Below are positions 7,371 to 56,483 of a stretch of 64,000 nt of DNA, piece after piece. A program made the position numbers and the translations under genes. Under the pieces are notes generated by a model, which worked only from the letters and a program-made list of their open reading frames with translations, ran no database searches and was not told the origin of the DNA. The stretch comes from a phage. The stretch lies in the NCBI GenBank assembly GCA_029742005.1, contig GCA_029742005.1_4113.1; one strand, written 5' to 3'. Positions within the stretch are counted from its first letter, which is position 1. Each line of letters opens with the position of its first letter.

Positions 7371-7385
7371 ATATAGGTGAATGCA

Positions 7386-12350: not shown

Positions 12351-12466
12351 TTATCCCTCCATTGGTATAATTATTATAACGTATTTATTATGAATATCCA
12401 AAAAATGAGCTTGACTGGTGTATGATTTGGTGTTATCATGTAGTGAATGAATAATGAGGTGTTTTT

Positions 12467-40269: not shown

Positions 40270-40604
40270 TGGAATATTTTTTACACTTACTGCCGTGGTA
40301 TATGAAAGTTAGTACTATGTACTATATTCTTAGTGCTGGATTCTACTTTCTGATGTGGTTCTTCAAACGACCAATTTCAGTATTCATCTCTGATAACATG
40401 CTGCAATTAAAATTACACGCATGGTTTTTTATGGCGATGTTTATGCCTATTATTCACTACTCAATGATTAGTAGAGGTTTACGTTCTAATGGTGAACCAA
40501 TTATATTAGTATTCTATTGGGGTTCAACTATTGCATATGTAAGTTTGTTGTTGATCCCAGCCGTTCATAAATTACGTGCTAAAGTTCCTGATGTGAGGTA
40601 CTAA
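40266..40604 (+). CDS. small 3-TM membrane protein, array member
   Basis: Overlapping ATGA junction. Confidence 0.55.
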   Translation: MMEYFLHLLPWYMKVSTMYYILSAGFYFLMWFFKRPISVFISDNMLQLKLHAWFFMAMFMPIIHYSMISRGLRSNGEPIILVFYWGSTIAYVSLLLIPAVHKLRAKVPDVRY

Positions 40605-40918
40605 TGGATATCTTAACATTGATTTACACGTTGTATTCATTCTATTTTATTATGTGTTGGGTTGGATTTTTATTTGTACTGAAGATGTTTGATTATGTTG
40701 AAAAACAGATAAAAGAATTTTGTATTCCTTTTATTGGGTCAACCATTATTAGTATTACTTGTTTGTATTATTTGGTATGTGATCCACCTGATGATACAGC
40801 TATGATTGATTTCATGTTATTGCCAACAACTGTTATTTTTTTATGTAGTCTGATGCCACCGATTAGCCGTGGACTAACTGAATTTAGACGCAATCAAAAG
40901 CGTAAACGAGGGATGTGA
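40604..40918 (+). CDS. small 3-TM membrane protein, array member
   Basis: Coupled start. Confidence 0.55.
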   Translation: MDILTLIYTLYSFYFIMCWVGFLFVLKMFDYVEKQIKEFCIPFIGSTIISITCLYYLVCDPPDDTAMIDFMLLPTTVIFLCSLMPPISRGLTEFRRNQKRKRGM

Positions 40919-41286
40919 TGGAAATTGCACTTATTATATTAACTGCTATGTTGTTTATTAGTACAATTGTTATTATTGGCAAGTTCTTCTGTGTATCCTT
41001 CTTGGAAACCGTATACGATGAAATTGCTGATGATTATGAATTACATGCGGGATTTTTTACTACGTATTGGATTAGTTTATTACTACTTATCACTGTATGG
41101 ATTTTACATATATTCAAATGGGGTATGGTAGATGGTGATCCAGTACTGGCAATTATCTGTGTAGTGTTTGGTCTACTCGGTGGTGCTGTCCATAATCTGA
41201 TGGTAATTTGGCAAACCGTACAATATGTATTAGTTCCACATTTTCAGAGAATGCACCAAAGCATCAAATACCGCAAACGAGGATAA
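40915..41286 (+). CDS. small 3-TM membrane protein, array member
   Basis: Overlapping junction. Confidence 0.55.
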   Translation: MMEIALIILTAMLFISTIVIIGKFFCVSFLETVYDEIADDYELHAGFFTTYWISLLLLITVWILHIFKWGMVDGDPVLAIICVVFGLLGGAVHNLMVIWQTVQYVLVPHFQRMHQSIKYRKRG

Positions 41287-41287
41287 C

Positions 41288-41650
41288 ATGAATAATATTG
41301 AATTATCTTTTATTGGTCAATTAATGGTAATGGCGTATACATTTATCTTCTCACTGAATGCATTCGTGTGCATTGGGAAGTACTTCCATAAGCGACCATT
41401 ATCAAATATATATGATGTAATCCAAAAGAGATATAGTCCAGCATATACTGTGTTGGGTACAGTATTCAATTTTGGTTTTATTGTATTAATAATTGGACTG
41501 TTCACATCCTCTTTGAATACAATAACCTTCGGTCTTATGATATGTTCATTGGTATTAGCCGTAATTATATGTTGTTTAGTACTACACCTTGTGATACTAT
41601 TATATATAAAGATCTCTGAAATCCACCAACGTTTGGGTATGAGGAAATAA
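41288..41650 (+). CDS. small 3-TM membrane protein, array member
   Basis: Coupled start. Confidence 0.55.
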   Translation: MNNIELSFIGQLMVMAYTFIFSLNAFVCIGKYFHKRPLSNIYDVIQKRYSPAYTVLGTVFNFGFIVLIIGLFTSSLNTITFGLMICSLVLAVIICCLVLHLVILLYIKISEIHQRLGMRK

Positions 41651-41651
41651 T

Positions 41652-42023
41652 ATGAGTTACCGTGAGATATTTTCCATTATTTCAATTATTATGTTCAGTA
41701 CTGGAACACTGGTATGGTTATTATATTTCTTCTGTATTAATCCAGTGTATAATATGTTATGTAATATTAAATCAAGTGCCGGATATATCACTTTTATGGT
41801 CTTTATGGGATATTATTGTCTAAGCATTTTAGGTGTTGTTTTGGTTGTTATATTTGATGTGGGGCCAAATAGTGATGGTATGGAAATACATGAATTAATA
41901 ACCATGTTTGGATGTATGATACCAACAGCACTACTGTTTGTAGCTACTGGTAGTGGATTGATAAAATTATATAATTATTTAAAATCCATTCATAATTCCA
42001 TTCATAATAAGCGTATGTCATAA
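41652..42023 (+). CDS. small 3-TM membrane protein, array member
   Basis: Coupled start. Confidence 0.55.
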   Translation: MSYREIFSIISIIMFSTGTLVWLLYFFCINPVYNMLCNIKSSAGYITFMVFMGYYCLSILGVVLVVIFDVGPNSDGMEIHELITMFGCMIPTALLFVATGSGLIKLYNYLKSIHNSIHNKRMS

Positions 42024-42065
42024 TAAAAAATCCAGTACTATTAAGTACTGGATGTATAAGGAGTT

Positions 42066-42728
42066 ATGATGAAATCAAAATTAGGTTTGTTTTATAAAAA
42101 CTATTTTGTTAAACAACGTAAATTTATAAAAAAATATTTCTCTGGTGAGAAGTCTAGTCCTATAATTTTTAAAAGACCAAGTTATAATACTTACTTAGCT
42201 GGTGCTAAACAGTCTAAGAAATTTATTACTCTTTTAAATAAAAACAAAATTAAAGCTTCTTATGTTGAAACGAGAAGAAACTCATCAATAACTCCTGGTG
42301 ATTTTATTGAGTACGGATGTTTCAATATTAAGTATAATGATAATACATACTTTATGGATATTGATTGTAATACATCCAATCTTTTTAACATTGTAGTAAA
42401 TCCATTAAAACAATATAATGTTTATGGTGATTCTATTATCAAATTAATAAAAAACAAAGATGGCTTTGATTTTGAAATAAATGTTTTAGATGATAATTTT
42501 GACGAAGTACCCGTAAACCCTGAAATCTGTGATATTTTAAACAGTTTAAAAGGTAGTACCTACAATATATCATCTGATTTAATGTTTCAGTACTCATTAA
42601 TCCATAAAGATATTGAAAAGTATATTGAATGCTCCAGAATTTTGAATTTTCTCTATGATGAATTTAAAAAGAGTTCTAAAATAACTGCATACACTTTGTA
42701 CAATATTCCTAAAATGGTGAATCTTTAA
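42066..42728 (+). CDS. hypothetical protein (220 aa)
   Basis: ORF track; AAGGAG RBS; last plus-strand gene before strand switch. Confidence 0.55.
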   Translation: MMKSKLGLFYKNYFVKQRKFIKKYFSGEKSSPIIFKRPSYNTYLAGAKQSKKFITLLNKNKIKASYVETRRNSSITPGDFIEYGCFNIKYNDNTYFMDIDCNTSNLFNIVVNPLKQYNVYGDSIIKLIKNKDGFDFEINVLDDNFDEVPVNPEICDILNSLKGSTYNISSDLMFQYSLIHKDIEKYIECSRILNFLYDEFKKSSKITAYTLYNIPKMVNL

Positions 42729-43132
42729 CAAATACAGTACTGGCAACTCCACCGTCTGTAATATATTGTCCAGTACTGTAAATTTGTATACCATCGGTTA
42801 AGTAAGTTCTGTATAAAGTTGCTGTAACATATACGTTATTCATATTCATCTCTATTGGTAGTACACATTTGGTATAGGCCGACACATCTGTTTGTGTACC
42901 TATACCCAATTGACCTGCGTTATCGCCTGTGTTATTACCAGTTGCGTAAACACCCAATGAAGTTATAATATGATTAGAAAAATATGAATAACCCAAACTC
43001 TTGAGATTCTCTACTGTACAACGTACCATCTGACATAAGGGCAAAAACTGTTGTATCAGATGAAGCTATTTTTGTTACAGAAGGTTGTATGTTCTGTTTT
43101 GATGATGTGATAATTCTTCGAAAGGGTAGCAT
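42709..43132 (-). pseudogene. truncated and frameshifted RCC1-like paralog
   Basis: N-terminus MLPFRRI in one frame (42974..43198) continues in another frame (42709..43044) carrying GNNTGDNAGQLGIGTQTD. Confidence 0.5.
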
Positions 43133-43203
43133 TGTATCCTCCAAATGTAAATCGTTATTATATTTAGGACAAAAAATGCCAGTACAAGGCACTGGCATAA
43201 AAT

Positions 43204-44373
43204 CTAAGCAGAAGGCATATCCTTCATCTTAATAAATGAAAATTGTGTACCAGTATTTGTGGTTTGATCAGTAAAATATGAATTACTACCAGCCCAGTAC
43301 AATTCATTATTAACTATACAATATATAACAGAACTCGAACTCTGTGAATACACACGACTTATATTTGATGGTTCTACTCCAGTACTGAACTGAACCGAAC
43401 CCAACTGTGAACTTGGTATCACATCAGTTGGTCTACCTAAACCATTAACACCAGCCCCACCACCACATGTATATACCCCAGTACTATCAGTTGATATATT
43501 AACATAACCATTCCCGGCATTTTCAAATAGTATTTCACTGGGAGCAACACCAAATCCTGTAAGATCTATTTTCCTGAATGTAGTGTAAACAGTAGAACCA
43601 CCAACACCTCTTCCACCATAATCATTAGAACCAGCCATATAGATACTATATCCAGAACTTCCTAAACATAATAACTGTACGTTGTCATATAATATTTGCA
43701 TAGATATAACGTTATCAGGAATACTCAATACCGTAAAAGTAGTTAAAGAAGAACTTCCAATATTACTACCAACCGATGTTCCACATCTGTAGTACTTACC
43801 GCCTTTTATATAATGGAACGATGAACCCCCTAACTTATGTGCTCCTATTGCACTTACCTCAGTATCTATGAGAATGGGAGATACAACTTTGTTATTAACA
43901 CCTAACTCAGATCTACTGTTCATACCGAACCCATATAAACGACCATCTAACATCAATATTAGTGTACTACCGGAAGTACCCGCTGACGTAAATTCTATAT
44001 TCTTTATTTGCGACACGTCAATACCTACAAATAATGAAGTTACTTCAGTCCAGTTAACATATGAACCACTAGCCCCAAAATATCCACCCATGTATAGACC
44101 TGCACAATATAATTTATTATCAACAGTCTTTATTAATGTACCGGATACACACGCCCAAAAATCATCAACTTCATAGGGTACATGTACCCAACCACCTAAT
44201 ACATCACTAGCATCCCCTGTACCTAATTTATAGTTCGAACCAGAACCACGCATGTACATATTCCCTGTACTATAAAGTAATCCGACATGTAATTGACTAC
44301 CATCCAATTTCTTTATTTCGGGAAGAGTTGGTTTAATATTTCCGTACTTTAACATTCTTCCAAAAGGTAACAT
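43204..44373 (-). CDS. RCC1-like beta-propeller repeat protein, array member 1
   Basis: Start at MLPFGRMLKYGN after AAGGAGG RBS; repeated Y-x-x-G-x-N-x-x-G-x-L/G-G motifs. Confidence 0.7.
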   Translation of the reverse strand: MLPFGRMLKYGNIKPTLPEIKKLDGSQLHVGLLYSTGNMYMRGSGSNYKLGTGDASDVLGGWVHVPYEVDDFWACVSGTLIKTVDNKLYCAGLYMGGYFGASGSYVNWTEVTSLFVGIDVSQIKNIEFTSAGTSGSTLILMLDGRLYGFGMNSRSELGVNNKVVSPILIDTEVSAIGAHKLGGSSFHYIKGGKYYRCGTSVGSNIGSSSLTTFTVLSIPDNVISMQILYDNVQLLCLGSSGYSIYMAGSNDYGGRGVGGSTVYTTFRKIDLTGFGVAPSEILFENAGNGYVNISTDSTGVYTCGGGAGVNGLGRPTDVIPSSQLGSVQFSTGVEPSNISRVYSQSSSSVIYCIVNNELYWAGSNSYFTDQTTNTGTQFSFIKMKDMPSA

Positions 44374-44444
44374 AATTCCTCCTTTATTCATTATACTATA
44401 TTTAATACAAAAAGAAAAGCCAGTACAGAGTACTGGCCTATATT

Positions 44445-45164
44445 TTAGACTGAATTGTTAGGATAATATCTCCCACGTCCCCATATTATTCGCACAGCAC
44501 CACCACCAGCAGCCGTATAAGAAAAATTATCCCATATACTACCACCACCACCATACATCTTACCAGCACCACCACTACCAGCACCACCATTATATGAACC
44601 ATCGTATCTACCGCCAATACCATTAGCACCTTGAACAATGATACCAGTACCACCACCCGTACCAATGAACGAGGTATTATAGAATGCACCACCACCGCCG
44701 CCGCCGCCAGCACCATTTTCACCAGTGATTGCATCTCCGTTACCACCTTTACCAGTGTAGCCACCAGCACCACCACCAATGACTGCACCACCACTTACAC
44801 CAGCGTTGCCCCCATTACCACCACCATCATTAATAGCGTTAGCAGCTTTCCCACCTAGTCCACCAACCCTATATTCACCAGTGAAGCTAACACATAGTTT
44901 TTCAGTTCCACGATATAAACCGTTTTCAACTGGTGTAGTAGTGTTGGGATGTGTAAGAGAAACACTTAAGTACTCACCACTAGTAACCGGAATATTATTA
45001 CGCCACGATAAGCCGCCACCAGCACCACGTTGACCACCCGGCGAAATAACACATACTGATATTTCGGTAACGCCAGCAGGAACTGTAAATTGTGTTGTTC
45101 CTATTGTCGTGATTAATTGTTCACCATGTGGCTTATATTCAATTTTATTCCCTCCTTTATTCAT
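44445..45164 (-). CDS. glycine-rich repeat protein (start codon uncertain)
   Basis: ~100-aa N-terminal domain then GGxGG-rich tract ending GGGAVRIIWG; same upstream cassette as RCC1-like genes. Confidence 0.55.
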   Translation of the reverse strand: MNKGGNKIEYKPHGEQLITTIGTTQFTVPAGVTEISVCVISPGGQRGAGGGLSWRNNIPVTSGEYLSVSLTHPNTTTPVENGLYRGTEKLCVSFTGEYRVGGLGGKAANAINDGGGNGGNAGVSGGAVIGGGAGGYTGKGGNGDAITGENGAGGGGGGGAFYNTSFIGTGGGTGIIVQGANGIGGRYDGSYNGGAGSGGAGKMYGGGGSIWDNFSYTAAGGGAVRIIWGRGRYYPNNSV

Positions 45165-45218
45165 TATAATATATTTAATACAAAAAAGAAAAGCCAGTAC
45201 TCTGTACTGGCTTTTACA

Positions 45219-46409
45219 TTACAATTGTCTAGGTGTATCCAGTACATATCTATTTGTACGAGGACCACCATCATCATGCGTTCCGGTTGAATATATATTT
45301 TTCATATCAGCAGTTAGGAAAGTACGATACGAACCGCGATATATTTTAATTTTATCATACATAGAATATGTTATTCCTGACGGCAATGGACATGCAGTAA
45401 ATTTACCAATGGTAACATTAGAACCAACACCTAATGTACCAGCATAACCACTCGCATTTAAACCAGTTGCATATACACCTGTACTCGTAACTAGTATACT
45501 AGATTGTGATGCATATCCAGTATGGATTGAATAATAAGTTCCTGATGGTAATGTAGTACTATTATTCCCTAATACTGCTAGTGCTGTACTATTCGTAGTG
45601 TTATTACCCCATGCCCCATTATTAGCTAATCCACCAACTAGAAACTGACGTGCTCCTGTATTTGGATTCTCCACTAAAGCACTGACAGCACCAAATGAAC
45701 AAACAGTATATTGTAATGTTTTTGTATATGTGGTACTTGGCTTATACAAAGTATATTCATTAAATGGTGTCCATGTGGTACTAGTACTTATGCCAGATGT
45801 ACTACCACCAATATATAAATTATTTTGTGTATCAAAAAACATTGCACAGTAATTTGTTGACTGTATTTGTGCAATATCTACATCTGGTGTTACCGCTTTA
45901 ACAAATGAACCATCTGATATTTGATAAGTAGTTCCTGTACCATCTGCGAATTGTCTAGCACTATTCCACCCTGTACTCCATATTGTATTATTATCCATTA
46001 AGAAAGTAAACCATGTAGTACCTGCATACATCTGTTTAATTGAAGTACTTGAACTTTGTTTGTACAATTTTTCAATATATTGGTTATAACTTAAAAATGA
46101 TGTAGTACTAGTTTCTAAACCAATATGACTACCATATCCACAATAAAAATAATTTAAGTCCTTATCTTGAACTAACAAAGTTCCTTGTGTCATCCAGCAA
46201 TCTTTGACATTTTCTCTAATTAATGTCCACGACCTTACTGCATTATTATTTCCTCTACCAAACTTCCCAAAACTATTACTGCCTCGTGCGTATAGTTGAC
46301 CGTCGGTATAAAGTACAACAACCTCAGTATCAGTTGGTATTATTTTCTTAATTTGAAGAGGTTCAGGTGTGATATTCCCATAATCAAACATTCTAACAAA
46401 AGGTAACAT
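45219..46409 (-). CDS. RCC1-like beta-propeller repeat protein, array member 2
   Basis: N-terminus MLPFVRMFDYGN. Confidence 0.7.
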   Translation of the reverse strand: MLPFVRMFDYGNITPEPLQIKKIIPTDTEVVVLYTDGQLYARGSNSFGKFGRGNNNAVRSWTLIRENVKDCWMTQGTLLVQDKDLNYFYCGYGSHIGLETSTTSFLSYNQYIEKLYKQSSSTSIKQMYAGTTWFTFLMDNNTIWSTGWNSARQFADGTGTTYQISDGSFVKAVTPDVDIAQIQSTNYCAMFFDTQNNLYIGGSTSGISTSTTWTPFNEYTLYKPSTTYTKTLQYTVCSFGAVSALVENPNTGARQFLVGGLANNGAWGNNTTNSTALAVLGNNSTTLPSGTYYSIHTGYASQSSILVTSTGVYATGLNASGYAGTLGVGSNVTIGKFTACPLPSGITYSMYDKIKIYRGSYRTFLTADMKNIYSTGTHDDGGPRTNRYVLDTPRQL

Positions 46410-46478
46410 ATTTCCTCCTTATTCATTATACTATATTTAATACAAATAAGAATGCCAGTATCAAGTACTGGCATTATG

Positions 46479-47588
46479 TTATTTTGGTAAATCAATTTTA
46501 GTAAAGACTGCAACATCCTCGATTGCACCTGGAATGGCGTAATACGATCCAGTACTATACACATCTCCATTTTTGGTTAATATCGATGTCAAACCATCAC
46601 TAAAAAGAACATCCCTAATCTCACTAACTTCAACGGGTAATTGTAAATTGGTAGCACTATATATAGCACCAGTTTGAGAATTGTTTAATCCCAAACCACG
46701 GTTCGCCCCAACACCCTTCTGATATGTACTAGTAATTACCATTTGTGTAGCAGTATTTAAGGCAGGTGAATTCGTCATAAACAACGGAGAACTATTAGGC
46801 AAAGTACTTACAGGAACGGCACGGAATGTAGTCGTGCCTGAACTAAGAAAGTTTGGAGTTTGACCACATACGAAATATGATGTACCATTATAGTAATTGA
46901 ATGCATTACCACCAATGGCTGCATCGATTACACCAGAACTACGCAATCCCCAAGTGTTAATTTGTGTTTGGTTCCCCGTACCATGCTGTCCACTACTATT
47001 CCATCCAGAACTATATAGCTTATTATCTAATGTAAGATACATACTATCATTCGCATTGGTCATTACTTTACGAACGTTCGTAGCACATTGAGTTAATGTG
47101 TAAATTGATGAGGAACCAATACCCAAAGAACCACGATATCCATTATCTCCTGCACCATAGAGTACTGAATTAGTGCTAAGTACAAATATTAAACCATTTG
47201 TACATACAATATTAGCAATTTCACTTACTGGTATAGCATTGGTAAACCAATTAGTCCTTTCAACTAATACAGTACTGTAAGAAGTAGTTGTAGAAGATGA
47301 GAACCAGTACGTTTGACCTGATGTCCATATCGTATTATCATTTTTAATAATAACAAGTGTACGATCACCCACGAAAAAATTAGAAACATCTGCACTTACT
47401 AATATCCATGAAGATACCGTGTTGGTATTACCATTTCCAGATTCACCACCTTGATTTCTACCTATGTAATATAAATCATGTGAATCAGTCAATAAGAATT
47501 GACCTTGTGTAGAAGCACCAACTTTAATTATATTTTTAGGACCAGGTACAATATTTCCGTACTTAACCATTCTTGCAAAAGGTAACAT
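46479..47588 (-). CDS. RCC1-like beta-propeller repeat protein, array member 3
   Basis: N-terminus MLPFARMVKYGN; C-terminus FTKIDLPK. Confidence 0.7.
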   Translation of the reverse strand: MLPFARMVKYGNIVPGPKNIIKVGASTQGQFLLTDSHDLYYIGRNQGGESGNGNTNTVSSWILVSADVSNFFVGDRTLVIIKNDNTIWTSGQTYWFSSSTTTSYSTVLVERTNWFTNAIPVSEIANIVCTNGLIFVLSTNSVLYGAGDNGYRGSLGIGSSSIYTLTQCATNVRKVMTNANDSMYLTLDNKLYSSGWNSSGQHGTGNQTQINTWGLRSSGVIDAAIGGNAFNYYNGTSYFVCGQTPNFLSSGTTTFRAVPVSTLPNSSPLFMTNSPALNTATQMVITSTYQKGVGANRGLGLNNSQTGAIYSATNLQLPVEVSEIRDVLFSDGLTSILTKNGDVYSTGSYYAIPGAIEDVAVFTKIDLPK

Positions 47589-47598
47589 AATTCTCTCC

Positions 47599-48729
47599 TT
47601 AATTTAATAATGCCCCTGGCAAATCCACTTTGACGAATTGTGCATATGCTGAGGAATTTTGATCAAAGTTTGGTCCCAATCCATAAAATGAGCTAATGCC
47701 GTCTTCATTTGTGTATATGATATAAACGTTCTTTACATCATTTCCGCATATAAATCGAATGTCTTTCGTTTGTGTTCCCGCTGGAACATTACGAAGGTTC
47801 ACAACGCCATTACTTGCATTGTTATCAGCCGACGCAATTGGTAATTGATTTTGACCATATTGACCACGCATATTTTTTGCATCTAAACCAAACACAGTAT
47901 TTGATACCGCACCAACTTTCAAAAATGAACCAAAACTATTATTGAATGACTTTGGAAATGTACCACTATAAACACTTCTCCCATCTGATAATACCGCTGA
48001 ACTGAATTTCCCGTTATTCGATATGGCAAATTCATTGTAAGGAAGTGTACCCATTTTGGTATATACAGAATATGAATTAGTGGAAGTATTATCAATAATC
48101 TTATTACCATTATATCCAATACCATACTGGTATCCGTCTGCATCTTGAACTATACACAAAGGACCACTTGGGGTTTGTGTCAACGAAACAACACGTTCAA
48201 CTTGTATATCACCAAATGTATTTCTTCGCCATGTTCTATCTATTATAGTACTAGTATTACCCAAAGATAATTCCACACTATATAATAGATTGTTTTCAGT
48301 AAAAATGGCAACATAATATGCGTGGTTAATAACTTGCTTCATCCCAGCATCAATAACTTCCTGTGGAATATGATCAGTAACATCCAACCAATCAAGGTTA
48401 GATGATGCAATATCTGGAGTACTGAATTTGTCAAATCTAGTTGAGCCACAAACTAGCACTCTATCATCATTTGTCAAAGCCACTGTGCTAGTCTGCATAT
48501 TAGAACTGAATGATTTAACATTACTAATGTTAGACTTGTACCAACCCTTATCAGCAGCACCCACCGTGAATCCGGTTCCCATTGATCCACTTGTACTTGT
48601 ACCATAAGCCCACATCTCACCACTATATGTTAGTGCCATACAGTGGCTTCCATTTGCTTGGAAATCCTTTATACCAGTGGGAGCAACCACTGTATTCCCA
48701 TAATCAAACATTCTAACAAAAGGTAACAT
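47599..48729 (-). CDS. RCC1-like beta-propeller repeat protein, array member 4
   Basis: Start at MLPFVRMFDYGN; C-terminus FVKVDLPG. Confidence 0.7.
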   Translation of the reverse strand: MLPFVRMFDYGNTVVAPTGIKDFQANGSHCMALTYSGEMWAYGTSTSGSMGTGFTVGAADKGWYKSNISNVKSFSSNMQTSTVALTNDDRVLVCGSTRFDKFSTPDIASSNLDWLDVTDHIPQEVIDAGMKQVINHAYYVAIFTENNLLYSVELSLGNTSTIIDRTWRRNTFGDIQVERVVSLTQTPSGPLCIVQDADGYQYGIGYNGNKIIDNTSTNSYSVYTKMGTLPYNEFAISNNGKFSSAVLSDGRSVYSGTFPKSFNNSFGSFLKVGAVSNTVFGLDAKNMRGQYGQNQLPIASADNNASNGVVNLRNVPAGTQTKDIRFICGNDVKNVYIIYTNEDGISSFYGLGPNFDQNSSAYAQFVKVDLPGALLN

Positions 48730-48804
48730 AACTAAAATCTCCATATAATAATTATAATGTATTTACAAAAAAATACCAGTACATATTTCAGTACTGGCAT
48801 TTTG

Positions 48805-49932
48805 TTAAAATGGTAAATCTATTTGTTTAGTAAATGTCATACTTAGTGGTATTGAACACATTGACGCATTTCTCCCATTTAAATTGGACGGAGGCTGTCC
48901 GTTCATCCATATATTGGTATCGTCGTAAAAAGTACTCCACCACGTAGAACCTTCCGTATGAAGATTAATATTAAAATCAGGGAATTGACATTCTTGAAAA
49001 ACATCAAAAAACGGGATAGATGATACACTACTACCAGTAAATGGAGTGTAGCCTGTTGACATTAATTTATTAGTATCCGAATTTACCAAAAAGATAACAG
49101 AACCAGTATTGAATGGTGAATATTTTGGATACAAATTACTCATATCACCGATAGTGAAGTTGATATCAAATATTTTACTATGCTTACCAGTTCCTGAAAG
49201 TGTAGTACCAGTTACATATATTTTATTATCAGTTGTTCCCATGACAAACCCAATTCCAAATCCCACACAAAATGTTATGTCATATGGTATATTATCAAAG
49301 AGTGGGACAAACGTTGTGGCATCACCAGTAGTAGCTTTTATTTGATAGCTATTATTTGCCCCAGCACCCCAAACAGTACCATTTGATTTCACTTTGAATA
49401 TACTATCTCCTATGTAGTGACCGTATATACTATCAACTTCAGTATCAAGTTTTGTCCATTGTGATACAAAGTTTTTATGCCCTAAACCTAAACAACCATT
49501 GCGGTTTAGTCCCCTGCCGTATAGTGTACCATCATTCATCAGTACAAATGTTGTGTATCCACAAAGCATTTTTTTGATTTGTGTAACATCAATACCAGCA
49601 AAAAAACCACTCCAATCAGTATATCCTTGTTGGATTGCGTTTGATTTGGTGAATGACATAGTTGGTCCTGAACCATATATTTTACCATCTTTTATAATCA
49701 CTGAATAAGAACCTAACCATACATCTTGAACATTCTCACTAATTGTTTTCAATTCACCATATGCAGAGAATGGAGTACTTTGCCCTGCACTATATGATGA
49801 ATCTTCACCGTGTGCATATAATGTTCCATTTTCTGTTAGAATCATTTCCAAATATACACAATTGACAATTTTCTTTATTTTATTAACTTCTATTTTATTT
49901 CCGTACGCTAACATCCTTGCAAAAGGTAACAT
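48805..49932 (-). CDS. RCC1-like beta-propeller repeat protein, array member 5
   Basis: Start at MLPFARMLAYGN; C-terminus FTKQIDLPF. Confidence 0.7.
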   Translation of the reverse strand: MLPFARMLAYGNKIEVNKIKKIVNCVYLEMILTENGTLYAHGEDSSYSAGQSTPFSAYGELKTISENVQDVWLGSYSVIIKDGKIYGSGPTMSFTKSNAIQQGYTDWSGFFAGIDVTQIKKMLCGYTTFVLMNDGTLYGRGLNRNGCLGLGHKNFVSQWTKLDTEVDSIYGHYIGDSIFKVKSNGTVWGAGANNSYQIKATTGDATTFVPLFDNIPYDITFCVGFGIGFVMGTTDNKIYVTGTTLSGTGKHSKIFDINFTIGDMSNLYPKYSPFNTGSVIFLVNSDTNKLMSTGYTPFTGSSVSSIPFFDVFQECQFPDFNINLHTEGSTWWSTFYDDTNIWMNGQPPSNLNGRNASMCSIPLSMTFTKQIDLPF

Positions 49933-50007
49933 AACTAAAATCTCCATATAATAATTATAATGTATTTACAAAAAAATACCAGCACATATTTCAGTACTGG
50001 TATAATG

Positions 50008-51180
50008 TTATGGTAAAATAATAGCTTGTAACGAACTCATACCCAATGTTGGAACACTCGCCTGTGGTGCTGGTGCATTCACTTTTGGTGATGAAACCGC
50101 ATAAGTCATTCCTGTACCCAAATCTGGATCAAAAACTACAGAACAATAATCCCCATTGTATATAAGTCCATTAGTATATCCTTGTACACTTTGAATGCAT
50201 TTCGTGAACGTACCAATGTCAGTAGTGGCATTTATTAAGTTCCTCCCACGGTAGCCACATGTGTATATGAAATTATCATCACCTATGTACATACTCGCAT
50301 TCCCAGAAGAACTACATAGATAAGACATATAAGCACGCATGTTTTTAGGAGCAACTGACAATGTACCAGCATAGAATTTATTATTCATACCCGAAATATC
50401 ACCATCACCCAAAGCACCAAAACTCCCCCAACCAGTACCATAATATCTCTTATCACTCAAGAATATAATACAGTTGTTATTACACATCTTGACTTGATAT
50501 ATCAATGAAGGATCAACCCCAGGGAATGATTCAGTGTATGTTAGAACAGCCAGATCAGTACTGGCATTACATTGATGATATGTATTAGTACCAGCGGACA
50601 ATATTGTACCATCAACTAATAGAATCCTCGAAGTGCCAGTACCAGCAATACAAGCAACAGCATTACCTGTATATATTTTTCTGAAAGTAAAGAAACCAAC
50701 AGTCTTACTCCCCTGTCCACTCCAACCAGTATTATCAACACCACATGCCCATACTGAACCATCTTGCATGATCATCATTACACCATAGCGTTCTATCGAA
50801 ATATAGACAATCTTCGTAGTATCAACTGCACTAAATCTAGAAGTTATATCAGTCCAAACCTTTACACTCACCGCCGTCGCACCGAAAGTAGGATCTTCCC
50901 CTGCTATCATTATCCTACCATTGTTAGTCAGATACATTGTCTGACTATAACCAGTACTACAAAACTTAACACTATCAGTCTCTGGAACTTTTAACCACTC
51001 GTTGTAACGTGTTACGTTAGTGTTATTATCTAACTGATAATAGTTATTCATCCCAGATACATATAACACACCATCCTTTATTAAACTATAAGTCGCACTA
51101 TAGTCACTACAGGTATAACGTGTACCCACAGGTCGCTCAACGACGTTCCCATATTCTAACATCCTTACAAAAGGCAACAT
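50008..51180 (-). CDS. RCC1-like beta-propeller repeat protein, array member 6
   Basis: Start at MLPFVRMLEYGN. Confidence 0.7.
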   Translation of the reverse strand: MLPFVRMLEYGNVVERPVGTRYTCSDYSATYSLIKDGVLYVSGMNNYYQLDNNTNVTRYNEWLKVPETDSVKFCSTGYSQTMYLTNNGRIMIAGEDPTFGATAVSVKVWTDITSRFSAVDTTKIVYISIERYGVMMIMQDGSVWACGVDNTGWSGQGSKTVGFFTFRKIYTGNAVACIAGTGTSRILLVDGTILSAGTNTYHQCNASTDLAVLTYTESFPGVDPSLIYQVKMCNNNCIIFLSDKRYYGTGWGSFGALGDGDISGMNNKFYAGTLSVAPKNMRAYMSYLCSSSGNASMYIGDDNFIYTCGYRGRNLINATTDIGTFTKCIQSVQGYTNGLIYNGDYCSVVFDPDLGTGMTYAVSSPKVNAPAPQASVPTLGMSSLQAIILP

Positions 51181-51221
51181 AACTAAATACCAGAACATAT
51201 TTCAGTACTGGTATCGTAGCG

Positions 51222-52364
51222 TTAAAATGGCATCTTAACCTCTTTATATACTAATATATCACCGGATAAACCAGGAAACGCAGAACCATTACCACATGCA
51301 TATATAGTACTGTCATTCCACGCCGCTTGATGGTAATTACCTATAGTACATTTATAATTCGATAAATCAGTCACACCAGGTGTTAGTACATAATATACTG
51401 GTCCACTAGGTAAATTAAAATCAAATCTACCAAAGTAGTTCAAACCAGATGAATAGGACTTGTCATTAGCAAATATTACAGTACCATCTTCTGTAAAAGA
51501 ACTGTGAGAAATGTCTTTGAGATTGTTCACAACACCAGACGGTATTGATGTATTCAACGTAAAGGACGTCAATGGTGCTGCACTCGGTGTGTTGTTCGCC
51601 GTGTAACCATAATATGCATAACCAGCTACATATACACTCGAATCTGAACAAAATAAAAATGCACTCCTATAACCCAACCTAATACTCTCTATAGTCTTAC
51701 TAAAAGTAACTTTAGTAAAGGTAGGAACTAAACCACTATATCCTACCCCACATGTACCAAAATCATTCTTCCCAGTACTGTACAATTCGTTATTATTTGT
51801 AAGGTAAAATGACGCAGCAGCACCGCTATCTAAAGTACTGTAAACGTCTTTTACATTACTCGCAATCAATTTAAATGCACTCAATACGGTAGCCGAACCA
51901 TTGTTAGACAGCGTTGTTGAATCCGTGCCTTGTCCTATTGTATATAAATCTCCAGTACTAGTCAAAACAAATATACCATTAGTCGCCATAACAATTCTGT
52001 CATTCTTTAAATTAAATGAACTAAAAAGTGTACTTATATCAGTAAAGGTAGTATAACGCCCACTCTGCCCTATACTCGATAAATTCCCACTCAAATAAAC
52101 CTTATTATCATTACCAACAGCTACATAACAACCCCACCCAGCATATATCTGATCAATGCCTTGTATCGGTATTTGTAACCATTCACTACCAGTTACCGAA
52201 GCAGTACTTCCAGTTCCAAGTTCACCAGAGTTATTAGCTCCGAATACATATAAATTCCCACTATCCGATAAAACAACTGTATTACCAACTCCAGTTTTTA
52301 TATCCTTGATACCATTCTTAGGAGCAACATTCCCATAATCAAACATTCTAACAAAAGGTAACAT
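51222..52364 (-). CDS. RCC1-like beta-propeller repeat protein, array member 7
   Basis: N-terminus MLPFVRMFDYGN; C-terminus YKEVKMPF. Confidence 0.7.
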   Translation of the reverse strand: MLPFVRMFDYGNVAPKNGIKDIKTGVGNTVVLSDSGNLYVFGANNSGELGTGSTASVTGSEWLQIPIQGIDQIYAGWGCYVAVGNDNKVYLSGNLSSIGQSGRYTTFTDISTLFSSFNLKNDRIVMATNGIFVLTSTGDLYTIGQGTDSTTLSNNGSATVLSAFKLIASNVKDVYSTLDSGAAASFYLTNNNELYSTGKNDFGTCGVGYSGLVPTFTKVTFSKTIESIRLGYRSAFLFCSDSSVYVAGYAYYGYTANNTPSAAPLTSFTLNTSIPSGVVNNLKDISHSSFTEDGTVIFANDKSYSSGLNYFGRFDFNLPSGPVYYVLTPGVTDLSNYKCTIGNYHQAAWNDSTIYACGNGSAFPGLSGDILVYKEVKMPF

Positions 52365-52436
52365 ATTTCCCTCCTTTATTCATTATACTATATTTAATCA
52401 AAAATAAAAGCCAGTACTTGAGTACTGGCATAGTAT

Positions 52437-53564
52437 TCAAAAAGGTAAATCAATTTGCTTAGTAATAATAGTATCTAACGGTATTGAACACAATGAGAAA
52501 TTCTTTCCACCCGTATTTTCAGGATTATATCCATTCATCCATACATTATTACCTTCGTAAAATGTATTCCAGTATAAAGCCCCACTATATCGTGTATTCG
52601 AATTGAACGATGGAAAGTTGAATTCTTGGAATGATGTAAAATATGGAATGGAACTTGAACTACTTCCCGTAAATGGGGTATACCCAGTTGCTATTAGTTT
52701 GTTTGTATCTGCATTAATTAAAAATACAACACTAGTCGAATAGTCCAACGAATCAGGATGATATATATTACTCATATCACCTATAGTAAAACCAACATCA
52801 AAAACTTTACTATGTGCACCACTACCAGCAAAAGTAGTTCCAGTTGCATATATTTTATTATCAGATGTTATCATTACAAAACCAACACCAGAAACAAAAC
52901 TGCATTTTATATCATAAGATATATCATCAAACAACGGAACAAATGTGGTTGCATCACCCGATGTTGCTTTAACTTGAAAGCTGTTATTTGAACCTGAACC
53001 ATATACAGTTCCATCGTTTTTAATCTTAAACAATGTATCGCCAAGGTAACCGCCAAATATATTATCCACATTAGTGTCAAGTACAGTCCACGCTGAAACA
53101 TAATTTTTATGTCCTAAACCTAATGCACCACTTCGATTCCATCCTCTTCCATAAAGTGTTCCGTCTTTCATTAATATAAATGCTGTATAACCACATAACA
53201 TTTTTTTAATTTGGGTAACATCTATACCAGTGAAATACACAGCCCAGTCAGTATATCCTTGTTGGAAAGTATCAGAATTCGTGAATGCATATGTTGGACC
53301 TGAACCATATATTTTATCACCTTTAATAACAACGGAAAACAATCCTAACCATAAGTCATCAACTTCAGTTGTGATTTGTTGAACTGCTCCTAACGATACA
53401 AACTTTGTACTTAAACCCGCATTATAGTTTGAATCTTCACCGTGTGCATATACAGTGCCATCTTGCATTAGAAACATTTCAAGAGTGCCACTAACAACAC
53501 TTTTCTTTATATTATTAACTTCGATTATATTCCCATAATCAAACATTCTAACAAAAGGTAACAT
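52437..53564 (-). CDS. RCC1-like beta-propeller repeat protein, array member 8 (close paralog of member 5)
   Basis: N-terminus MLPFVRMFDYGN; C-terminus ITKQIDLPF. Confidence 0.7.
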   Translation of the reverse strand: MLPFVRMFDYGNIIEVNNIKKSVVSGTLEMFLMQDGTVYAHGEDSNYNAGLSTKFVSLGAVQQITTEVDDLWLGLFSVVIKGDKIYGSGPTYAFTNSDTFQQGYTDWAVYFTGIDVTQIKKMLCGYTAFILMKDGTLYGRGWNRSGALGLGHKNYVSAWTVLDTNVDNIFGGYLGDTLFKIKNDGTVYGSGSNNSFQVKATSGDATTFVPLFDDISYDIKCSFVSGVGFVMITSDNKIYATGTTFAGSGAHSKVFDVGFTIGDMSNIYHPDSLDYSTSVVFLINADTNKLIATGYTPFTGSSSSSIPYFTSFQEFNFPSFNSNTRYSGALYWNTFYEGNNVWMNGYNPENTGGKNFSLCSIPLDTIITKQIDLPF

Positions 53565-53636
53565 AATTCCCTCCTTTATTCATTATACTTTATTTAATAC
53601 AAATAAGAATTCCTGTATCGAGTACTGGCATTCAAT

Positions 53637-54785
53637 TTATTGTAAAAAGGACATATCTACTTCTGTATAACTAAGAATGTTTTGACCAGCAATTCCACCC
53701 ATTACTACTATTGCATACCCACAATAATATAATTTCCCAGTGTCCGTAAGTATAAGTGAACCAGAAGGTGTTCTTACCAAATTACACGAACTATTAAAAG
53801 AAGTATACGAAGGAGTATAGGAGTACTGATTAATATTATTACCAACACCTAATTGACCACCCCTATTCGAACCAGATGCATAAAGTACTTCATCTGCTTT
53901 GACAATATGTGATGCCATGTTAGCAACACATGCATATACACCATATACCCCTGTACTCAATAATGTAGGAGTCTTGTATTGAATATCAGTACTAGTAGAT
54001 GTTCCACCTGTGCCAAATTCATTACCATATTGTGCTCCGTACTGCTTCCCACATGCGTACAAATTATTATCCGATTTGATAAAAAATGTACTCTGATAAC
54101 TTACATCAAAATCTATAACATCCGAAGAAATCATCGTTACCCCAGTAATCGAAGTTTGATTACCAGTACCCAACTGGTAGTAATAGTTAAAACCACAACC
54201 CCATAAAGTATTATCTTCTTTTAGGTATATGTTACCAACTGCCTTTTTAACCGAAGTTATAGTATCTACCCTTTTGAATGTGTTAAAAGAATTAATGTTT
54301 GTACCATCACCAAATGATGATAGGTTCGAGTTATTGTTAACTCCACAACAATACAACGTACCATCGTTTGTTATCAAATTCACCTTCATATCATTAAAAC
54401 TACTCATGTATTTTATATCAGAAACATTAATACCACCTGATGTTATCCATGTAGTACAGTCCGTCCATAACGTCTTCCTATCAGTTACCCCAGTAAATGC
54501 CTTCGTGTTACCAGTGATAAACACTTTACCAGTACCCTTTTCTTCATACAATTGACAATCACTACTGTTATCTTCCAATAAAACCCTCTGTACATTCTCT
54601 GCACAAAGAATAAATTTACTCGATGCTACACCTGTTCCAGTACCCCAATTCGTCGCAGAAGATGCATACAACTTATGTGTTAGTGTATCATGCAAATACA
54701 TAGAACCACTAGAATATATTTTAAAACGCCCAGAGTTGGTAGGTGCTTCATTCCCATAATCAAACATTCTAACAAAAGGTAACAT
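53637..54785 (-). CDS. RCC1-like beta-propeller repeat protein, array member 9
   Basis: Start at MLPFVRMFDYGN; C-terminus YTEVDMSF. Confidence 0.7.
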   Translation of the reverse strand: MLPFVRMFDYGNEAPTNSGRFKIYSSGSMYLHDTLTHKLYASSATNWGTGTGVASSKFILCAENVQRVLLEDNSSDCQLYEEKGTGKVFITGNTKAFTGVTDRKTLWTDCTTWITSGGINVSDIKYMSSFNDMKVNLITNDGTLYCCGVNNNSNLSSFGDGTNINSFNTFKRVDTITSVKKAVGNIYLKEDNTLWGCGFNYYYQLGTGNQTSITGVTMISSDVIDFDVSYQSTFFIKSDNNLYACGKQYGAQYGNEFGTGGTSTSTDIQYKTPTLLSTGVYGVYACVANMASHIVKADEVLYASGSNRGGQLGVGNNINQYSYTPSYTSFNSSCNLVRTPSGSLILTDTGKLYYCGYAIVVMGGIAGQNILSYTEVDMSFLQ

Positions 54786-54827
54786 ATTTCCTCCTTTATT
54801 CATTATATCATATTTACCCCATAACCC

Positions 54828-54856
54828 TTGACATCCTTTCAGTACTGGTGTACTAT
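54828..54856 (+). promoter_or_regulatory. sigma-70-like promoter at strand-switch, driving the plus-strand small-gene array
   Basis: TTGACATCCTTTCAGTACTGGTGTACTAT. Confidence 0.5.
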
Positions 54857-54881
54857 AGAAGGAATATAAGGAGAACTACAC

Positions 54882-55109
54882 ATGACAGCTACACTTAAGT
54901 ACTACATTAATACTCTAAATGAACTAGAGTACGGTAAGTTTCTCGCGGATTGTTCGTGGCTAATAGAGCTAAAAACACATAACAGTACTGGATGTAACCT
55001 TATGCTGAACAATGCACTTGATACCCTTGTAGTGAGTATTTTACACAGCAACATCTGCGGGAATAGCAATAAACAATTATCAAAAATCTTAGTACTGGTA
55101 GCTATATGA
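54882..55109 (+). CDS. small hypothetical protein, first gene of small-paralog array
   Basis: ORF track; AAGGAGAA RBS. Confidence 0.5.
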   Translation: MTATLKYYINTLNELEYGKFLADCSWLIELKTHNSTGCNLMLNNALDTLVVSILHSNICGNSNKQLSKILVLVAI

Positions 55110-55318
55110 ACACTATGAACATTAAACAGTACTACATCGATGCACTACCAACAAAAGGTCTACGAGAAAGCCTACTGTATACACAAAATAATTTTATACA
55201 CTACAAACGTTATCCTAAACTCCTGAACTCGTACAGGAATAATAACATAAGAAATGCTTTACAAGGGGTAGAAAGTATGCAATACTATTACATCCTTACC
55301 CTTTTAATCGAGTACTAA
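55106..55318 (+). CDS. small paralog-array protein (YY-N-term, LLIEY C-term)
   Basis: ORF track; coupled start. Confidence 0.5.
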   Translation: MNTMNIKQYYIDALPTKGLRESLLYTQNNFIHYKRYPKLLNSYRNNNIRNALQGVESMQYYYILTLLIEY

Positions 55319-55319
55319 T

Positions 55320-55505
55320 ATGTATAAAGAATTCTACTGTAGTAAGCTGCACAAGCAATACCGAGATTCATTCCCCAATGAACCTATGGACATGAATAGT
55401 CCATTTTATAAATTTGACTTCAGACTGGAGACACGTTATGCAATAGAACATCAATTTCCTGAAACTAAGTACTTATCTATCATGAACCTCATCTTTAAGT
55501 TCTAA
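55320..55505 (+). CDS. small paralog-array protein
   Basis: ORF track. Confidence 0.5.
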   Translation: MYKEFYCSKLHKQYRDSFPNEPMDMNSPFYKFDFRLETRYAIEHQFPETKYLSIMNLIFKF

Positions 55506-55516
55506 AAGAGTACTAT

Positions 55517-55729
55517 ATGAAAACTATGAACATTCATCAGTACTACTTAGATATTCTCCCTAAAGATGTGCAGAACATCCTTAAACAAGAATTCAGTACT
55601 TTAAAAAACCTTAAAAGATCCGCACCGAATGTACTCATCCTGCACCAAATAAATGTAGTTGATAATATTCTACAAGGTGTACCAGGAACCGAGTACTTTA
55701 ATATAGTAAGGCTAATTACATTACAATGA
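55517..55729 (+). CDS. small paralog-array protein
   Basis: ORF track; similar to 55106..55318. Confidence 0.5.
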   Translation: MKTMNIHQYYLDILPKDVQNILKQEFSTLKNLKRSAPNVLILHQINVVDNILQGVPGTEYFNIVRLITLQ

Positions 55730-55911
55730 ATCATATAAGCTACTATTACCAAAAACTATCCGACCGAGACAAGTACAGCCACAACTCCCATGTATGGTAC
55801 TACAAACGCGGTAGTATAAGGGACAAACAACATTACTTCTGTACTGCTATAAAAGAAAAACTAACAACTAAGTACACGTACAGAGCAGTACTGAAACTTA
55901 TTGATATGTAA
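55726..55911 (+). CDS. small paralog-array protein
   Basis: C-terminus KYTYRAVLKLIDM. Confidence 0.5.
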   Translation: MNHISYYYQKLSDRDKYSHNSHVWYYKRGSIRDKQHYFCTAIKEKLTTKYTYRAVLKLIDM

Positions 55912-55921
55912 AGAGAATACT

Positions 55922-56107
55922 ATGAATACATTTGAGTACTATACAAATAAACTATCTATGCCAGAAAGATCTCATCTCTATGTGTGGAGAAATGCGTATA
56001 AAAGCGGCAATAAACTTATACAAAGAAATTCCCTTACAGTGTGTACAAATTTAATTAAAGCAGAGTACCGCACATATATTGAAGTACTGAAACTAATCTC
56101 TATCTAA
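55922..56107 (+). CDS. small paralog-array protein
   Basis: Internal ATG (MNTFEYY); C-terminus YIEVLKLISI. Confidence 0.5.
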   Translation: MNTFEYYTNKLSMPERSHLYVWRNAYKSGNKLIQRNSLTVCTNLIKAEYRTYIEVLKLISI

Positions 56108-56115
56108 GGTACTCT

Positions 56116-56295
56116 ATGCAAGAATTCTATATCTATAAACTTCAGCACAAAGATAGATACAACTATAATAAATTCCAAAGGTACTACACAGTCGGGAACA
56201 AAAGAGATAAAAAACGATACTTTCTATCATGTACAGTAGAAGCACAAAACGAAAAGTACACGTACAGAGAAGTACTGAAACTCATCTCAATCTAA
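56116..56295 (+). CDS. small paralog-array protein (59 aa)
   Basis: Manually read ORF below track cutoff; C-terminus KYTYREVLKLISI. Confidence 0.45.
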   Translation: MQEFYIYKLQHKDRYNYNKFQRYYTVGNKRDKKRYFLSCTVEAQNEKYTYREVLKLISI

Positions 56296-56303
56296 GGAAT
56301 AAT

Positions 56304-56483
56304 ATGCAAGAATACTATATAGAACACATAAGCATTAAAGACCGTTTCATGTACGACACCTTCGTGAAGTACTACAACCTGGCAACTAACAGTACTAAAA
56401 ATATTAATCTCAATAGCTGCATTCATCAGGCACTAACAAAAGATAATCCCTTCAGGGAAATCCTCGCTCTCGCATCTGTATAA
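56304..56483 (+). CDS. small paralog-array protein
   Basis: Internal ATG (MQEYYIEH) after AAGGAA RBS. Confidence 0.5.
   Translation: MQEYYIEHISIKDRFMYDTFVKYYNLATNSTKNINLNSCIHQALTKDNPFREILALASV

Follow-up and report, generated by a model that had tools for sequence, protein, structure and literature searches.

What might a phage do with nine divergent RCC1-like propeller genes that all begin with the same short peptide? The genes in question form a minus-strand array, together with a glycine-rich gene and a degraded tenth copy, at positions 42709-54803 of a 64,000-nucleotide stretch of phage DNA (contig GCA_029742005.1_4113.1 of NCBI GenBank assembly GCA_029742005.1; the whole stretch is referred to as the window). 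Our results point to a shuffled repertoire of late-expressed, virion-borne adhesin-type modules, nine divergent propellers and one polyglycine brush protein, addressed by their common N-terminal leader, an explanation to which we give about an even chance of being right.

Megablast of window positions 42000-55000 returned 37 phage records, all from Escherichia or Salmonella jumbo phages of ~350 kb (PBECO4, 121Q, phAPEC6, G17, slurp01 and others), and the taxonomy retrieved for phAPEC6, G17, CMSTMSU and PBECO4 was Asteriusvirus. The source phage is an Asteriusvirus, i.e. a PBECO4/121Q/phAPEC6-like jumbo coliphage of ~350 kb in the Rak2-like group, which has core genes in common with T4 yet lies outside the T4-like phages in the strict sense. 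A preliminary description, made from the sequence alone, had placed the array in a T4-like phage, a setting that these results replace.

The array itself has been reported before. In phAPEC6, eleven similar RCC1-like proteins were described in 2020, eight of them among the 62 virion proteins found by mass spectrometry, and the authors speculated that these proteins organise DNA in the inner body (PMC7247149). The paper on phage CBB (2017) noted multiple RCC1-like copies in 121Q and PBECO4 and listed GAP32 gp1 as a structural protein by mass spectrometry (PMC5259590), the family has its own PHROG entry (4219), and the label 'chromosome condensation' has been repeated in later genome papers, e.g. 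PMC10059673. The preliminary description had called the array unrecognised and not known from described phages; it is instead a known gene set with an established name, and it is this name, 'DNA condensation protein', that is unsupported. The shared leader tag and the recombination joints in the intergenic cassettes apparently have not been reported previously.

Nine array genes encode RCC1-like propellers with a common leader

All nine paralogs (369-396 amino acids, aa) matched the Pfam RCC1-like domain PF25390, with E values of 7e-8 to 2e-30 and scores of 32-107 bits, all under the 150-bit cut-off of that family. Seven of them also reached at least 22 bits with RCC1_2 (PF13540), the genes at 43204 (15.6 bits) and 50008 (20.4 bits) falling below, and the four paralogs tested against PHROG 4219 all matched it (E 7e-23 to 4e-60). 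An AlphaFold2 model of the protein encoded by 51222-52364 (predicted local distance difference test, pLDDT, 77.6; predicted template modelling score, pTM, 0.80) contains 29 strands in seven blades. Foldseek comparisons of this model gave template modelling (TM) scores of 0.78-0.81 with UVR8 and of 0.68-0.73 with RCC1, RPGR and HERC2, and a profile built from the paralog alignment retrieved UVR8 from PDB sequences at 1.7e-60. The nine genes encode RCC1-like seven-bladed beta-propellers, as the preliminary description had suspected, and Pfam and structure prediction, the checks that it had proposed, agree on this with Foldseek. NCBIfam gave no matches for a propeller, for the glycine-rich protein or for the gp077-like protein discussed below. 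When the paralog alignment was run as a profile against 1.84 billion representative proteins, 151,466 matches came back, headed by giant proteins with many RCC1-like repeats, which is uninformative on the size of the leader-bearing family.

The true starts, which follow from the MLPF methionines, are the ATG codons at the upper coordinates in Table 1, as read from a list of open reading frames (ORFs) and the upstream sequences. From these starts all nine proteins read M-L-P-F-[VAG]-R-M-[FLV]-x-Y-G-N, in agreement with the shared N-terminus first described. The conserved C-terminus claimed along with it can be recognised clearly in roughly half of the copies and is otherwise loose, which is explained by the AlphaFold2 model, where the motif forms the last beta-strand of the propeller. 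The leader lies outside the folded domain, since residues 1-12 of the model have a pLDDT of ~51 and the first propeller strand begins at residue 19. The nine genes are not strictly consecutive, as had been stated, because the glycine-rich ORF lies between copies 1 and 2. The frameshifted tenth copy is a genuine remnant: from a PBECO4 gp296-like copy it retains residues ~1-50 and ~298-393, its interior having lost ~722 bp, and it changes frame. phAPEC6 and G17 carry this remnant as well, and PBECO4 has it in a longer form.

The paralogs are 21-39% identical to each other, apart from types O and R (64%), the sole close pair in the array, whereas orthologs across phages are 91-99.7% identical. 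The cores are therefore old and stable rather than being diversified in place, and the picture of conserved termini around diversifying cores was not upheld: the paralogs are ancient, each is well kept between phages, and it is gene presence and order that vary. Recent tandem duplication and in-place hypervariation were both rejected on these identities.

The same leader heads four folds in related phages

The leader has the 12-residue consensus M-L-P-F-x-R-M-h-x-Y-G-N (h, hydrophobic). Its broader form across the group, M-L-P-F-x-[RI]-[MIL]-x-x-Y-[GA]-N, stands at the start codon of all nine propellers, and the remnant keeps its first four residues. This leader heads four folds: RCC1 propellers (in Asteriusvirus, GAP32_001 and five tandem genes, g527c-g531c, of Yersinia phage fHe-Yen9-04), the glycine-rich protein, LamG/ConA-like proteins (GAP32_002 and CBB gp426, gp428, gp430, gp431, gp442 and gp443) and Kelch propellers (CBB gp425, gp427 and gp429). 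The syntenic CBB locus thus holds nine leader-bearing genes. The record of GAP32_002 lists its product, a ConA/LamG-like protein, as a structural protein of the virion.

Within and between genera, L2, P3, F4, R6, Y10, G11 and N12 stay constant despite synonymous codon changes, which points to selection on the peptide. The strict DNA pattern of the leader occurs in the 121Q genome in the array only, and a scan of IMG/VR with the leader DNA pattern found two contigs only. An alternative would be that the leader is no address tag, being kept instead by gene conversion between cassettes, by a translation-initiation constraint or by both, with each protein entering the virion through its own fold. 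Codons 1-4 are almost invariant within Asteriusvirus even at synonymous sites (CCT 24/24, TTT 24/24, TTA 23/24), and leader variants are homogenised within a genome, e.g. five leaders of the window are of the FD type, where phAPEC6 genes with orthologous bodies have VK or MN types, both as this alternative would predict. However, the motif persists across genera without DNA similarity and with synonymous changes (CCA/CCT/CCG, TTT/TTC, TAC/TAT, GGA/GGT/GGG), it sits on four unrelated folds, it is still kept in the Yersinia phage array, which has no intergenic cassettes, and the proteins that bear it are strongly enriched in virions. On balance we consider this alternative improbable and favor an address tag.

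A different N-terminal motif, M-[LIF]-E-x-[LM], was observed on LamG-like and glycine-rich cargos in Vequintavirinae and on many metagenomic contigs of large phages, with examples such as MLEAMLTAGK, MEEMLLVGGGK, MLELLAVSGTK and MIELLAISGTK; phage 4MG has it at 6953-7603 and 11936-12589. Judged by sequence, it may represent a second, lineage-specific class of N-terminal tag.

Leader proteins are enriched in virions

Virion association is documented in the literature for orthologs of the array proteins, and the window proteins would be expected to share it. Among CBB leader proteins, seven of nine are virion proteins, as compared to 55 of 554 proteins overall (Fisher p 2e-6), and the corresponding figures for phAPEC6 are 8/10 and 62/551 (p 6e-7). 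Coverage was 24-51% for five CBB leader proteins, and an independent phage JP4 list from liquid chromatography-tandem mass spectrometry contains three MLPF-leader proteins. In phAPEC6 virions, the type C ortholog gp549 (91% identity) was seen by 4 peptides and the type F ortholog gp010 by a single one. As for adhesin-like cargo, giant tail-module proteins of phiCD211 and Jenst contain RCC1-like domains, and in one metagenomic homolog a phage-tail-repeat match, below threshold, precedes the RCC1 domain.

The virion data bear on the possibility that the genes encode intracellular late proteins, e.g. binders of host or defence proteins, and that the mass-spectrometry detections reflect carry-over. 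Propellers are generic protein-binding scaffolds, and peptide counts were low in phAPEC6 and JP4; both would suit intracellular proteins. Nonetheless, independent detection in four phages of three genera, the high CBB coverage and the predicted late-type promoter that the array units carry, like structural genes, make this very unlikely.

RCC1 acts on Ran and nucleosomes, and the published annotation would have its phage relatives condense DNA or organise the genome inside the capsid. In its favor stand the name, transferred from eukaryotic RCC1, and the speculation of the phAPEC6 authors on such a role, repeated later (PMC7247149, PMC10059673). Of the nine paralogs (39-44 kDa), seven have an isoelectric point (pI) of 4.7-6.7 and a net charge of 0 to -11, i.e. 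they are acidic or neutral, and the basic DNA- or nucleosome-binding surface or tail of RCC1 proper was not found in them. In addition, Kelch, LamG and brush-domain proteins share the leader and locus in related phages, and gene presence varies between near-identical phages, unlike what is expected of a core packaging function. To our knowledge, Ran and nucleosomes are absent from bacteria and phages. We regard a role in DNA condensation as scarcely credible, and the label 'DNA condensation' or 'regulator of chromosome condensation' is almost certainly a misleading name transfer from eukaryotic RCC1. This annotation has spread over dozens of jumbo-phage records.

Intergenic cassettes carry terminators and a plausible late-type promoter

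Most of the genes are separated by cassettes that measure 108-114 bp from the stop codon to codon 12 of the next gene and are 81-90% identical within a type. The type A cassette, TTAAATA-TAG-TATAAT-GAATAAAGGAGG, lies upstream of five RCC1 genes and the glycine-rich ORF, and type B upstream of two genes. The earlier claim that each gene has the same cassette does not hold, given that the two types differ, the gene starting at 51180 is promoterless and the gene starting at 47588 begins 10 nt past the previous stop. A 28-nt cassette core occurs five times, as compared to none in 100 shuffles. A hairpin had likewise been claimed downstream of each gene; of eight that were folded, seven are stable, at -12.9 to -17.2 kcal/mol and z -4.4 to -6.7, with a T-run behind each, but the hairpin that follows 53637 is degenerate and 47599 is followed by none.

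The sequence TAAATA-N3-TATAAT occurs nine times in the window, always on the minus strand: eight times in the array and once, as ATAAATA-CGT-TATAAT, upstream of 11196-12350. This gene, which is followed by a hairpin terminator at 11170-11186, is 100% identical to phAPEC6 DNA at record positions 46466-47617, and we take its counterpart to be the phAPEC6 virion protein gp077 by mass match (42.9 kDa), for which the phAPEC6 mass-spectrometry table gives 10 peptides. It is the only other sizeable minus-strand gene of the window and looks like a late gene reversed within a rightward block of small genes. The late genes of phAPEC6 (those for the major capsid protein, gp226, gp228, gp231, gp232, gp238, gp242, gp244, gp245 and gp247) have TATAAATA or xTAAATA, and a related motif, ATAAATA, was predicted to be a late promoter in CBB (PMC5259590). 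It is plausible, from this resemblance, that the array cassettes carry a late-type promoter, xTAAATA-N3-TATAAT. Sigma-70 promoters were rejected, because the cassettes contained no -35 hexamer at 16-18 nt and a sigma-70 scan found 76 sites versus 75.6 expected, i.e. no enrichment. Most array genes apparently form separate units of terminator hairpin, late-type promoter, ribosome-binding site and leader, an arrangement that seems not to have been described.

A hairpin with CCAGTAC...GTACTGG arms and A- and T-runs on both sides also lies at 42030-42053, between two plus-strand genes, where the G17 record annotates a terminator at the matching position; the CCAGTAC-type stem is thus not exclusive to the array.

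Whole genes are exchanged at the cassettes

The array occupies the same position as in phAPEC6, G17 and PBECO4, between a gp011c-like gene and a rightward block of small genes. Its flanks are 95-98% identical to phAPEC6, whereas coverage of the array is at most 41% in any public record. We mapped the arrays of five genomes by clustering gene types at 80% identity. The best megablast match, CMSTMSU, was left out of this gene-level comparison because its record is marked UNVERIFIED and many frameshifts break its array genes. The five genomes contain 25 gene types in partly different orders: C-O-P-Q-R-S-A-B-E-F in the window, C-I-D-A-T-J-B-E-G-K-H-L-F in phAPEC6, U-M-A-J-C-D-B-E-K-V-H-F in G17, M-A-N-C-B-G-W-X in PBECO4 and D-A-N-B-E-Y-G-H-L in 121Q. 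Types O, P, Q, R and S of the window are absent from the other four, and type A, for which phAPEC6 has an unannotated ORF of 99.5% identity, recurs in G17, PBECO4 and 121Q. All three changes in gene content relative to phAPEC6 break at cassettes (window 44329-44440, 46366-46493 and 47601/53527). Whole genes have been swapped between related phages at the ~110-bp cassettes.

The phAPEC6 record (MK817115.1) duplicates its ends, so that gp550 and gp551 repeat the first two array genes at 100% identity, and gives no annotation for at least four ORFs of the array (record 3-1145, the 369-aa type A, the 396-aa type B and the glycine-rich gene). The published count of eleven is therefore inexact.

The glycine-rich gene is a predicted leaderless allele

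The glycine-rich ORF is unrelated to the propellers but lies inside the array behind a type A cassette, like five of the propeller genes. In phAPEC6, G17 and 121Q its product begins MLPFGRM[VI]KYGN. In the window, a 37-bp deletion at 45146-45180 (minus strand) has cost the gene its ATG together with leader codons 1-10. The deletion runs between direct repeats of GGGAAT, of which one falls in the spacer of the ribosome-binding site and the second in leader codons 11-12. What is left of the ORF can be opened only by an ATG within the -10 box or, possibly, by an ATT that follows GGAGGG at a distance of 6 nt. The same leaderless N-terminus is found in one Logan-assembly protein, while ECO103 4-12-1, phAPEC6 and G17 are intact. 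On this reading of the DNA, the gene of this phage is a natural leaderless allele.

The cargo of this gene is structurally a tail-fibre or brush domain, and polyglycine 'brush' domains are regarded as antireceptors (PMC13243795). A PDB sequence search returned no match for the glycine-rich protein, alone or as a profile, nor for the LamG-like protein of 4MG, so that no solved virion structure shows where these cargos sit. In CBB, DNA at about 1968-2066, immediately upstream of gp425, encodes ...GAVRIIYGDDRSFPNT, the C-terminal signature of the glycine-rich family, with a broken MLPF start nearby, and CBB seems, from this stretch, to have a family member or remnant at the head of its array too.

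External modules or internal cargo

LamG and Kelch domains are lectin or adhesion folds. Among the readings of the array, a role in host interaction or decoration, as suggested earlier, has the best support, which is indirect: adhesin-like folds among the cargos and virion enrichment of leader proteins in related phages. In this explanation, the leader would be an address tag that incorporates or docks each module into the virion, most likely on a scaffold outside the particle, for instance the hair-like fibres of 121Q, phAPEC6 and CBB, and the display of many different heads would allow multivalent binding of host surface structures. Most genes would form their own transcription unit, composed of intrinsic terminator, T4-late-like promoter (xTAAATA-N3-TATAAT), Shine-Dalgarno sequence and leader codons, and the ~110-bp near-repeats would serve as joints for homologous recombination, by which related phages gain, lose or reorder whole genes. 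CBB, phAPEC6 and 121Q were reported to carry long hairs on tail and head, those of CBB ending in tiny globules, and the CBB and phAPEC6 papers leave the proteins and role of these hairs or whiskers unassigned (PMC5259590, PMC7247149).

Several points weigh against this explanation. The external site is our own deduction, and the inner body of phAPEC6, which has no assigned proteins, is the location that its authors proposed for the RCC1-like ones (PMC7247149). GAP32 has leader proteins but no hairs have been reported for it, a peptide of 12 residues is much shorter than known tail-fibre anchor domains, and the sole basis for late timing is motif resemblance. Individual Asteriusvirus RCC1 proteins are thinly covered by mass spectrometry (1-5 peptides, 3-17% coverage), and the structure prediction covers one of the nine propellers (51222-52364). 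Finally, part of the leader's conservation could stem from gene conversion or a translation-initiation constraint, given the near-invariance of the first four codons.

The main rival to external modules is that the array proteins are internal head or inner-body proteins, or ejected ones, for which the leader acts as a capsid-targeting sequence (CTS) and whose cargo, e.g. anti-defence binders, is injected with the DNA. In T4, the internal proteins IPI-III and Alt share such a sequence, a short conserved N-terminus on otherwise unrelated virion proteins, and are encoded at a hyperplastic locus; the logic of the present array would be the same. The unassigned inner body of phAPEC6 (91 x 18 nm) would accommodate such proteins, their abundance is low and differs between proteins, and the repertoire is highly strain-variable, as expected of an arms race. 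By inspection, some copies also have I/L/V-x-E just past the leader (IIE, KIE, VVE, LPE), similar to T4 prohead-protease sites. However, this site is not consistent, in that four of the nine copies (46479, 47599, 51222 and 53637) have no Glu near the leader, and we know of no sequence similarity between the leader and the T4 CTS. Moreover, the cargos are mostly acidic or neutral binding folds of ~40 kDa rather than small basic proteins, and include a tail-fibre/brush domain as well as lectin and adhesion folds. We judge internal cargo unlikely in view of the adhesin-type folds, of the acidic charge and of a protease site that is not found consistently.

A broader form of the external explanation is held more tentatively; it is possible but falls short of being probable. 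MLPF...YGN would be a lineage-wide virion address tag by which any tagged binding domain plugs onto one Rak2-like scaffold, probably the hairs or whiskers, M-[LIF]-E-x-[LM]..G would be a second class of tag for the same cargo families in Vequintavirinae and other large phages, and the cassette would let phages trade heads while keeping the tag, as a natural plug-and-display system. The presence of the leader on virion proteins of four binding folds provides a testable hypothesis for the hair proteins. If the leader proved sufficient for incorporation, it would offer a ready-made display tag for engineering jumbo phages, and array composition (25 types in five genomes) would become a candidate marker of adsorption range for therapeutic Asteriusvirus isolates.

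Features of the array and neighbouring genes

The positions of the array genes, cassettes and the structural gene outside the array are given in Table 1.

Table 1. Coordinates of genes and cassettes in the window
Feature	Position	Strand	Remarks
Type C RCC1-like propeller	53637-54785	-	382 aa; first array gene; PF25390 3e-28, RCC1 and RCC1_2 above cut-off
Type O RCC1-like propeller	52437-53564	-	375 aa; Pfam matches
Type P RCC1-like propeller	51222-52364	-	380 aa; paralog modelled with AlphaFold2; PHROG 4219 at 9e-55
Type Q RCC1-like propeller	50008-51180	-	390 aa; upstream cassette truncated, hairpin kept, promoter part deleted
Type R RCC1-like propeller	48805-49932	-	375 aa; type B cassette upstream
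Type S RCC1-like propeller	47599-48729	-	376 aa; type B cassette upstream; most divergent copy
Type A RCC1-like propeller	46479-47588	-	369 aa; no cassette of its own
Type B RCC1-like propeller	45219-46409	-	396 aa; 94% identical to unannotated phAPEC6 ORF
Type E glycine-rich 'brush'/adhesin-type gene	44445-45164	-	239 codons; leader lost in this phage
Type F RCC1-like propeller	43204-44373	-	389 aa; ortholog of phAPEC6 gp010, 99.7% identity
Degraded tenth copy	42709-43132	-	leader plus ~50 residues of the N-terminus, followed in a different frame by ~97 of the C-terminus
Type A cassette (example)	44374-44444	-	terminator hairpin GCCAGTAC-N3-GTACTGGC, T-run, TTAAATA-TAG-TATAAT, AAAGGAGG
Type A-like cassette	45165-45218	-	
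Type A-like cassette	46410-46478	-	
Type A-like cassette	52365-52436	-	
Type A-like cassette	53565-53636	-	
Type A-like cassette	54786-54817	-	no hairpin
Type B cassette	48730-48804	-	ACCAGTACTGAAATATGTnCTGGT hairpin, T-run, GTAAATA-CAT-TATAAT, TATGGAG
Type B cassette	49933-50007	-	same hairpin-type cassette
Type B cassette, truncated	51181-51221	-	same hairpin-type cassette
Conserved virion structural protein gene	11196-12350	-	384 aa, pI 4.6; promoter-like motif at 12373-12387

Directly left of the array, on the opposite strand, six tandem genes (39922-42023) encode hydrophobic proteins of 104-123 aa with the look of membrane proteins. Arrays of small membrane-annotated genes, with weak sequence similarity, also adjoin the MLPF-leader arrays of CBB and Yersinia phage fHe-Yen9-04, so that this synteny spans genera. 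A conserved partner gene adjoining the array was also considered and rejected, as window positions 42066-42728 showed no homology to the DUF1190 lipoprotein genes that occupy the corresponding position in CBB and the Yersinia phage.

To the right of the array, a second tandem family of seven small plus-strand ORFs (61-84 aa) occupies 54882-56483; several begin M-x-T-M-N-I-x-Q-Y-Y and end in a hydrophobic ...LKLI-like tail, and the block is 80-89% identical to phAPEC6, below the surrounding flanks. Elsewhere on the plus strand the window encodes a sigma-70-family sigma factor with regions 2, 3 and 4 (17147-18112), a protein with CapR homology and a treble-clef zinc-finger domain (29892-31076) and a small P-loop nucleoside triphosphatase of the AAA/STAND type (38746-39516).

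Comparison with known systems

The propellers resemble the RCC1-like superfamily (UVR8, RCC1, RPGR and the RCC1-like domains of HERC1/2) in being seven-bladed propellers of RCC1 repeats. They differ in that identity is only 16-20%, there is no Ran, nucleosome or UV-B context, and the phage proteins add the 12-residue leader and are virion-associated; 'chromosome condensation' is therefore a misnomer. The T4 internal proteins with a CTS likewise carry a short shared N-terminal peptide on unrelated, strain-variable virion proteins, whereas the array cargos are large acidic binding folds that lack a consistent protease site.

The glycine-rich protein is closest to the polyglycine-rich brush adhesin domains of the Pam3 tail fiber (7ypx), Bxb1 gp33 and gp29 and S16 gp38, with PF21722 in homologs, but in Asteriusvirus it is a free-standing protein of ~245 aa with an MLPF leader, which the window copy has lost. 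The other Asteriusvirus arrays (phAPEC6 gp001-gp010 and gp549-551, 121Q 234-248, PBECO4 gp286-296; PHROG 4219) have the same locus, flanks, leader, cassettes and remnant as the window. The A, B, C and F propellers and the glycine-rich gene have orthologs of 91-99.7% identity there, while composition differs, the O, P, Q, R and S types being absent from phAPEC6, G17, PBECO4 and 121Q, and the glycine-rich gene having lost its leader in the window. The Kelch/LamG clusters of CBB (CBB_548-554, CBB_536/537) and GAP32_001/002 share the syntenic position beside an array of small membrane-protein genes, the MLPF...YGN leader and the late-type promoter, and most of them are confirmed virion proteins; the CBB clusters, in contrast, have Kelch and ConA-like lectin cargos and mostly tightly packed genes without a terminator/promoter cassette each.

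Finally, the cassettes recall the PeSL regulatory elements of T4-type phages (PMC2839356, PMC4122927), which are small repeated terminator/promoter composites in a hyperplastic region, mark junctions of insertion, deletion and replacement between close relatives and have a stem-loop that can serve for intrinsic termination. The promoters of PeSLs are early ones, strong and sigma-70-like, whereas the array promoter is of the late type and has no -35 element. Moreover, the array repeat, unlike a PeSL, continues past the ribosome-binding site as far as codon 12, so that recombination at a cassette preserves the leader.

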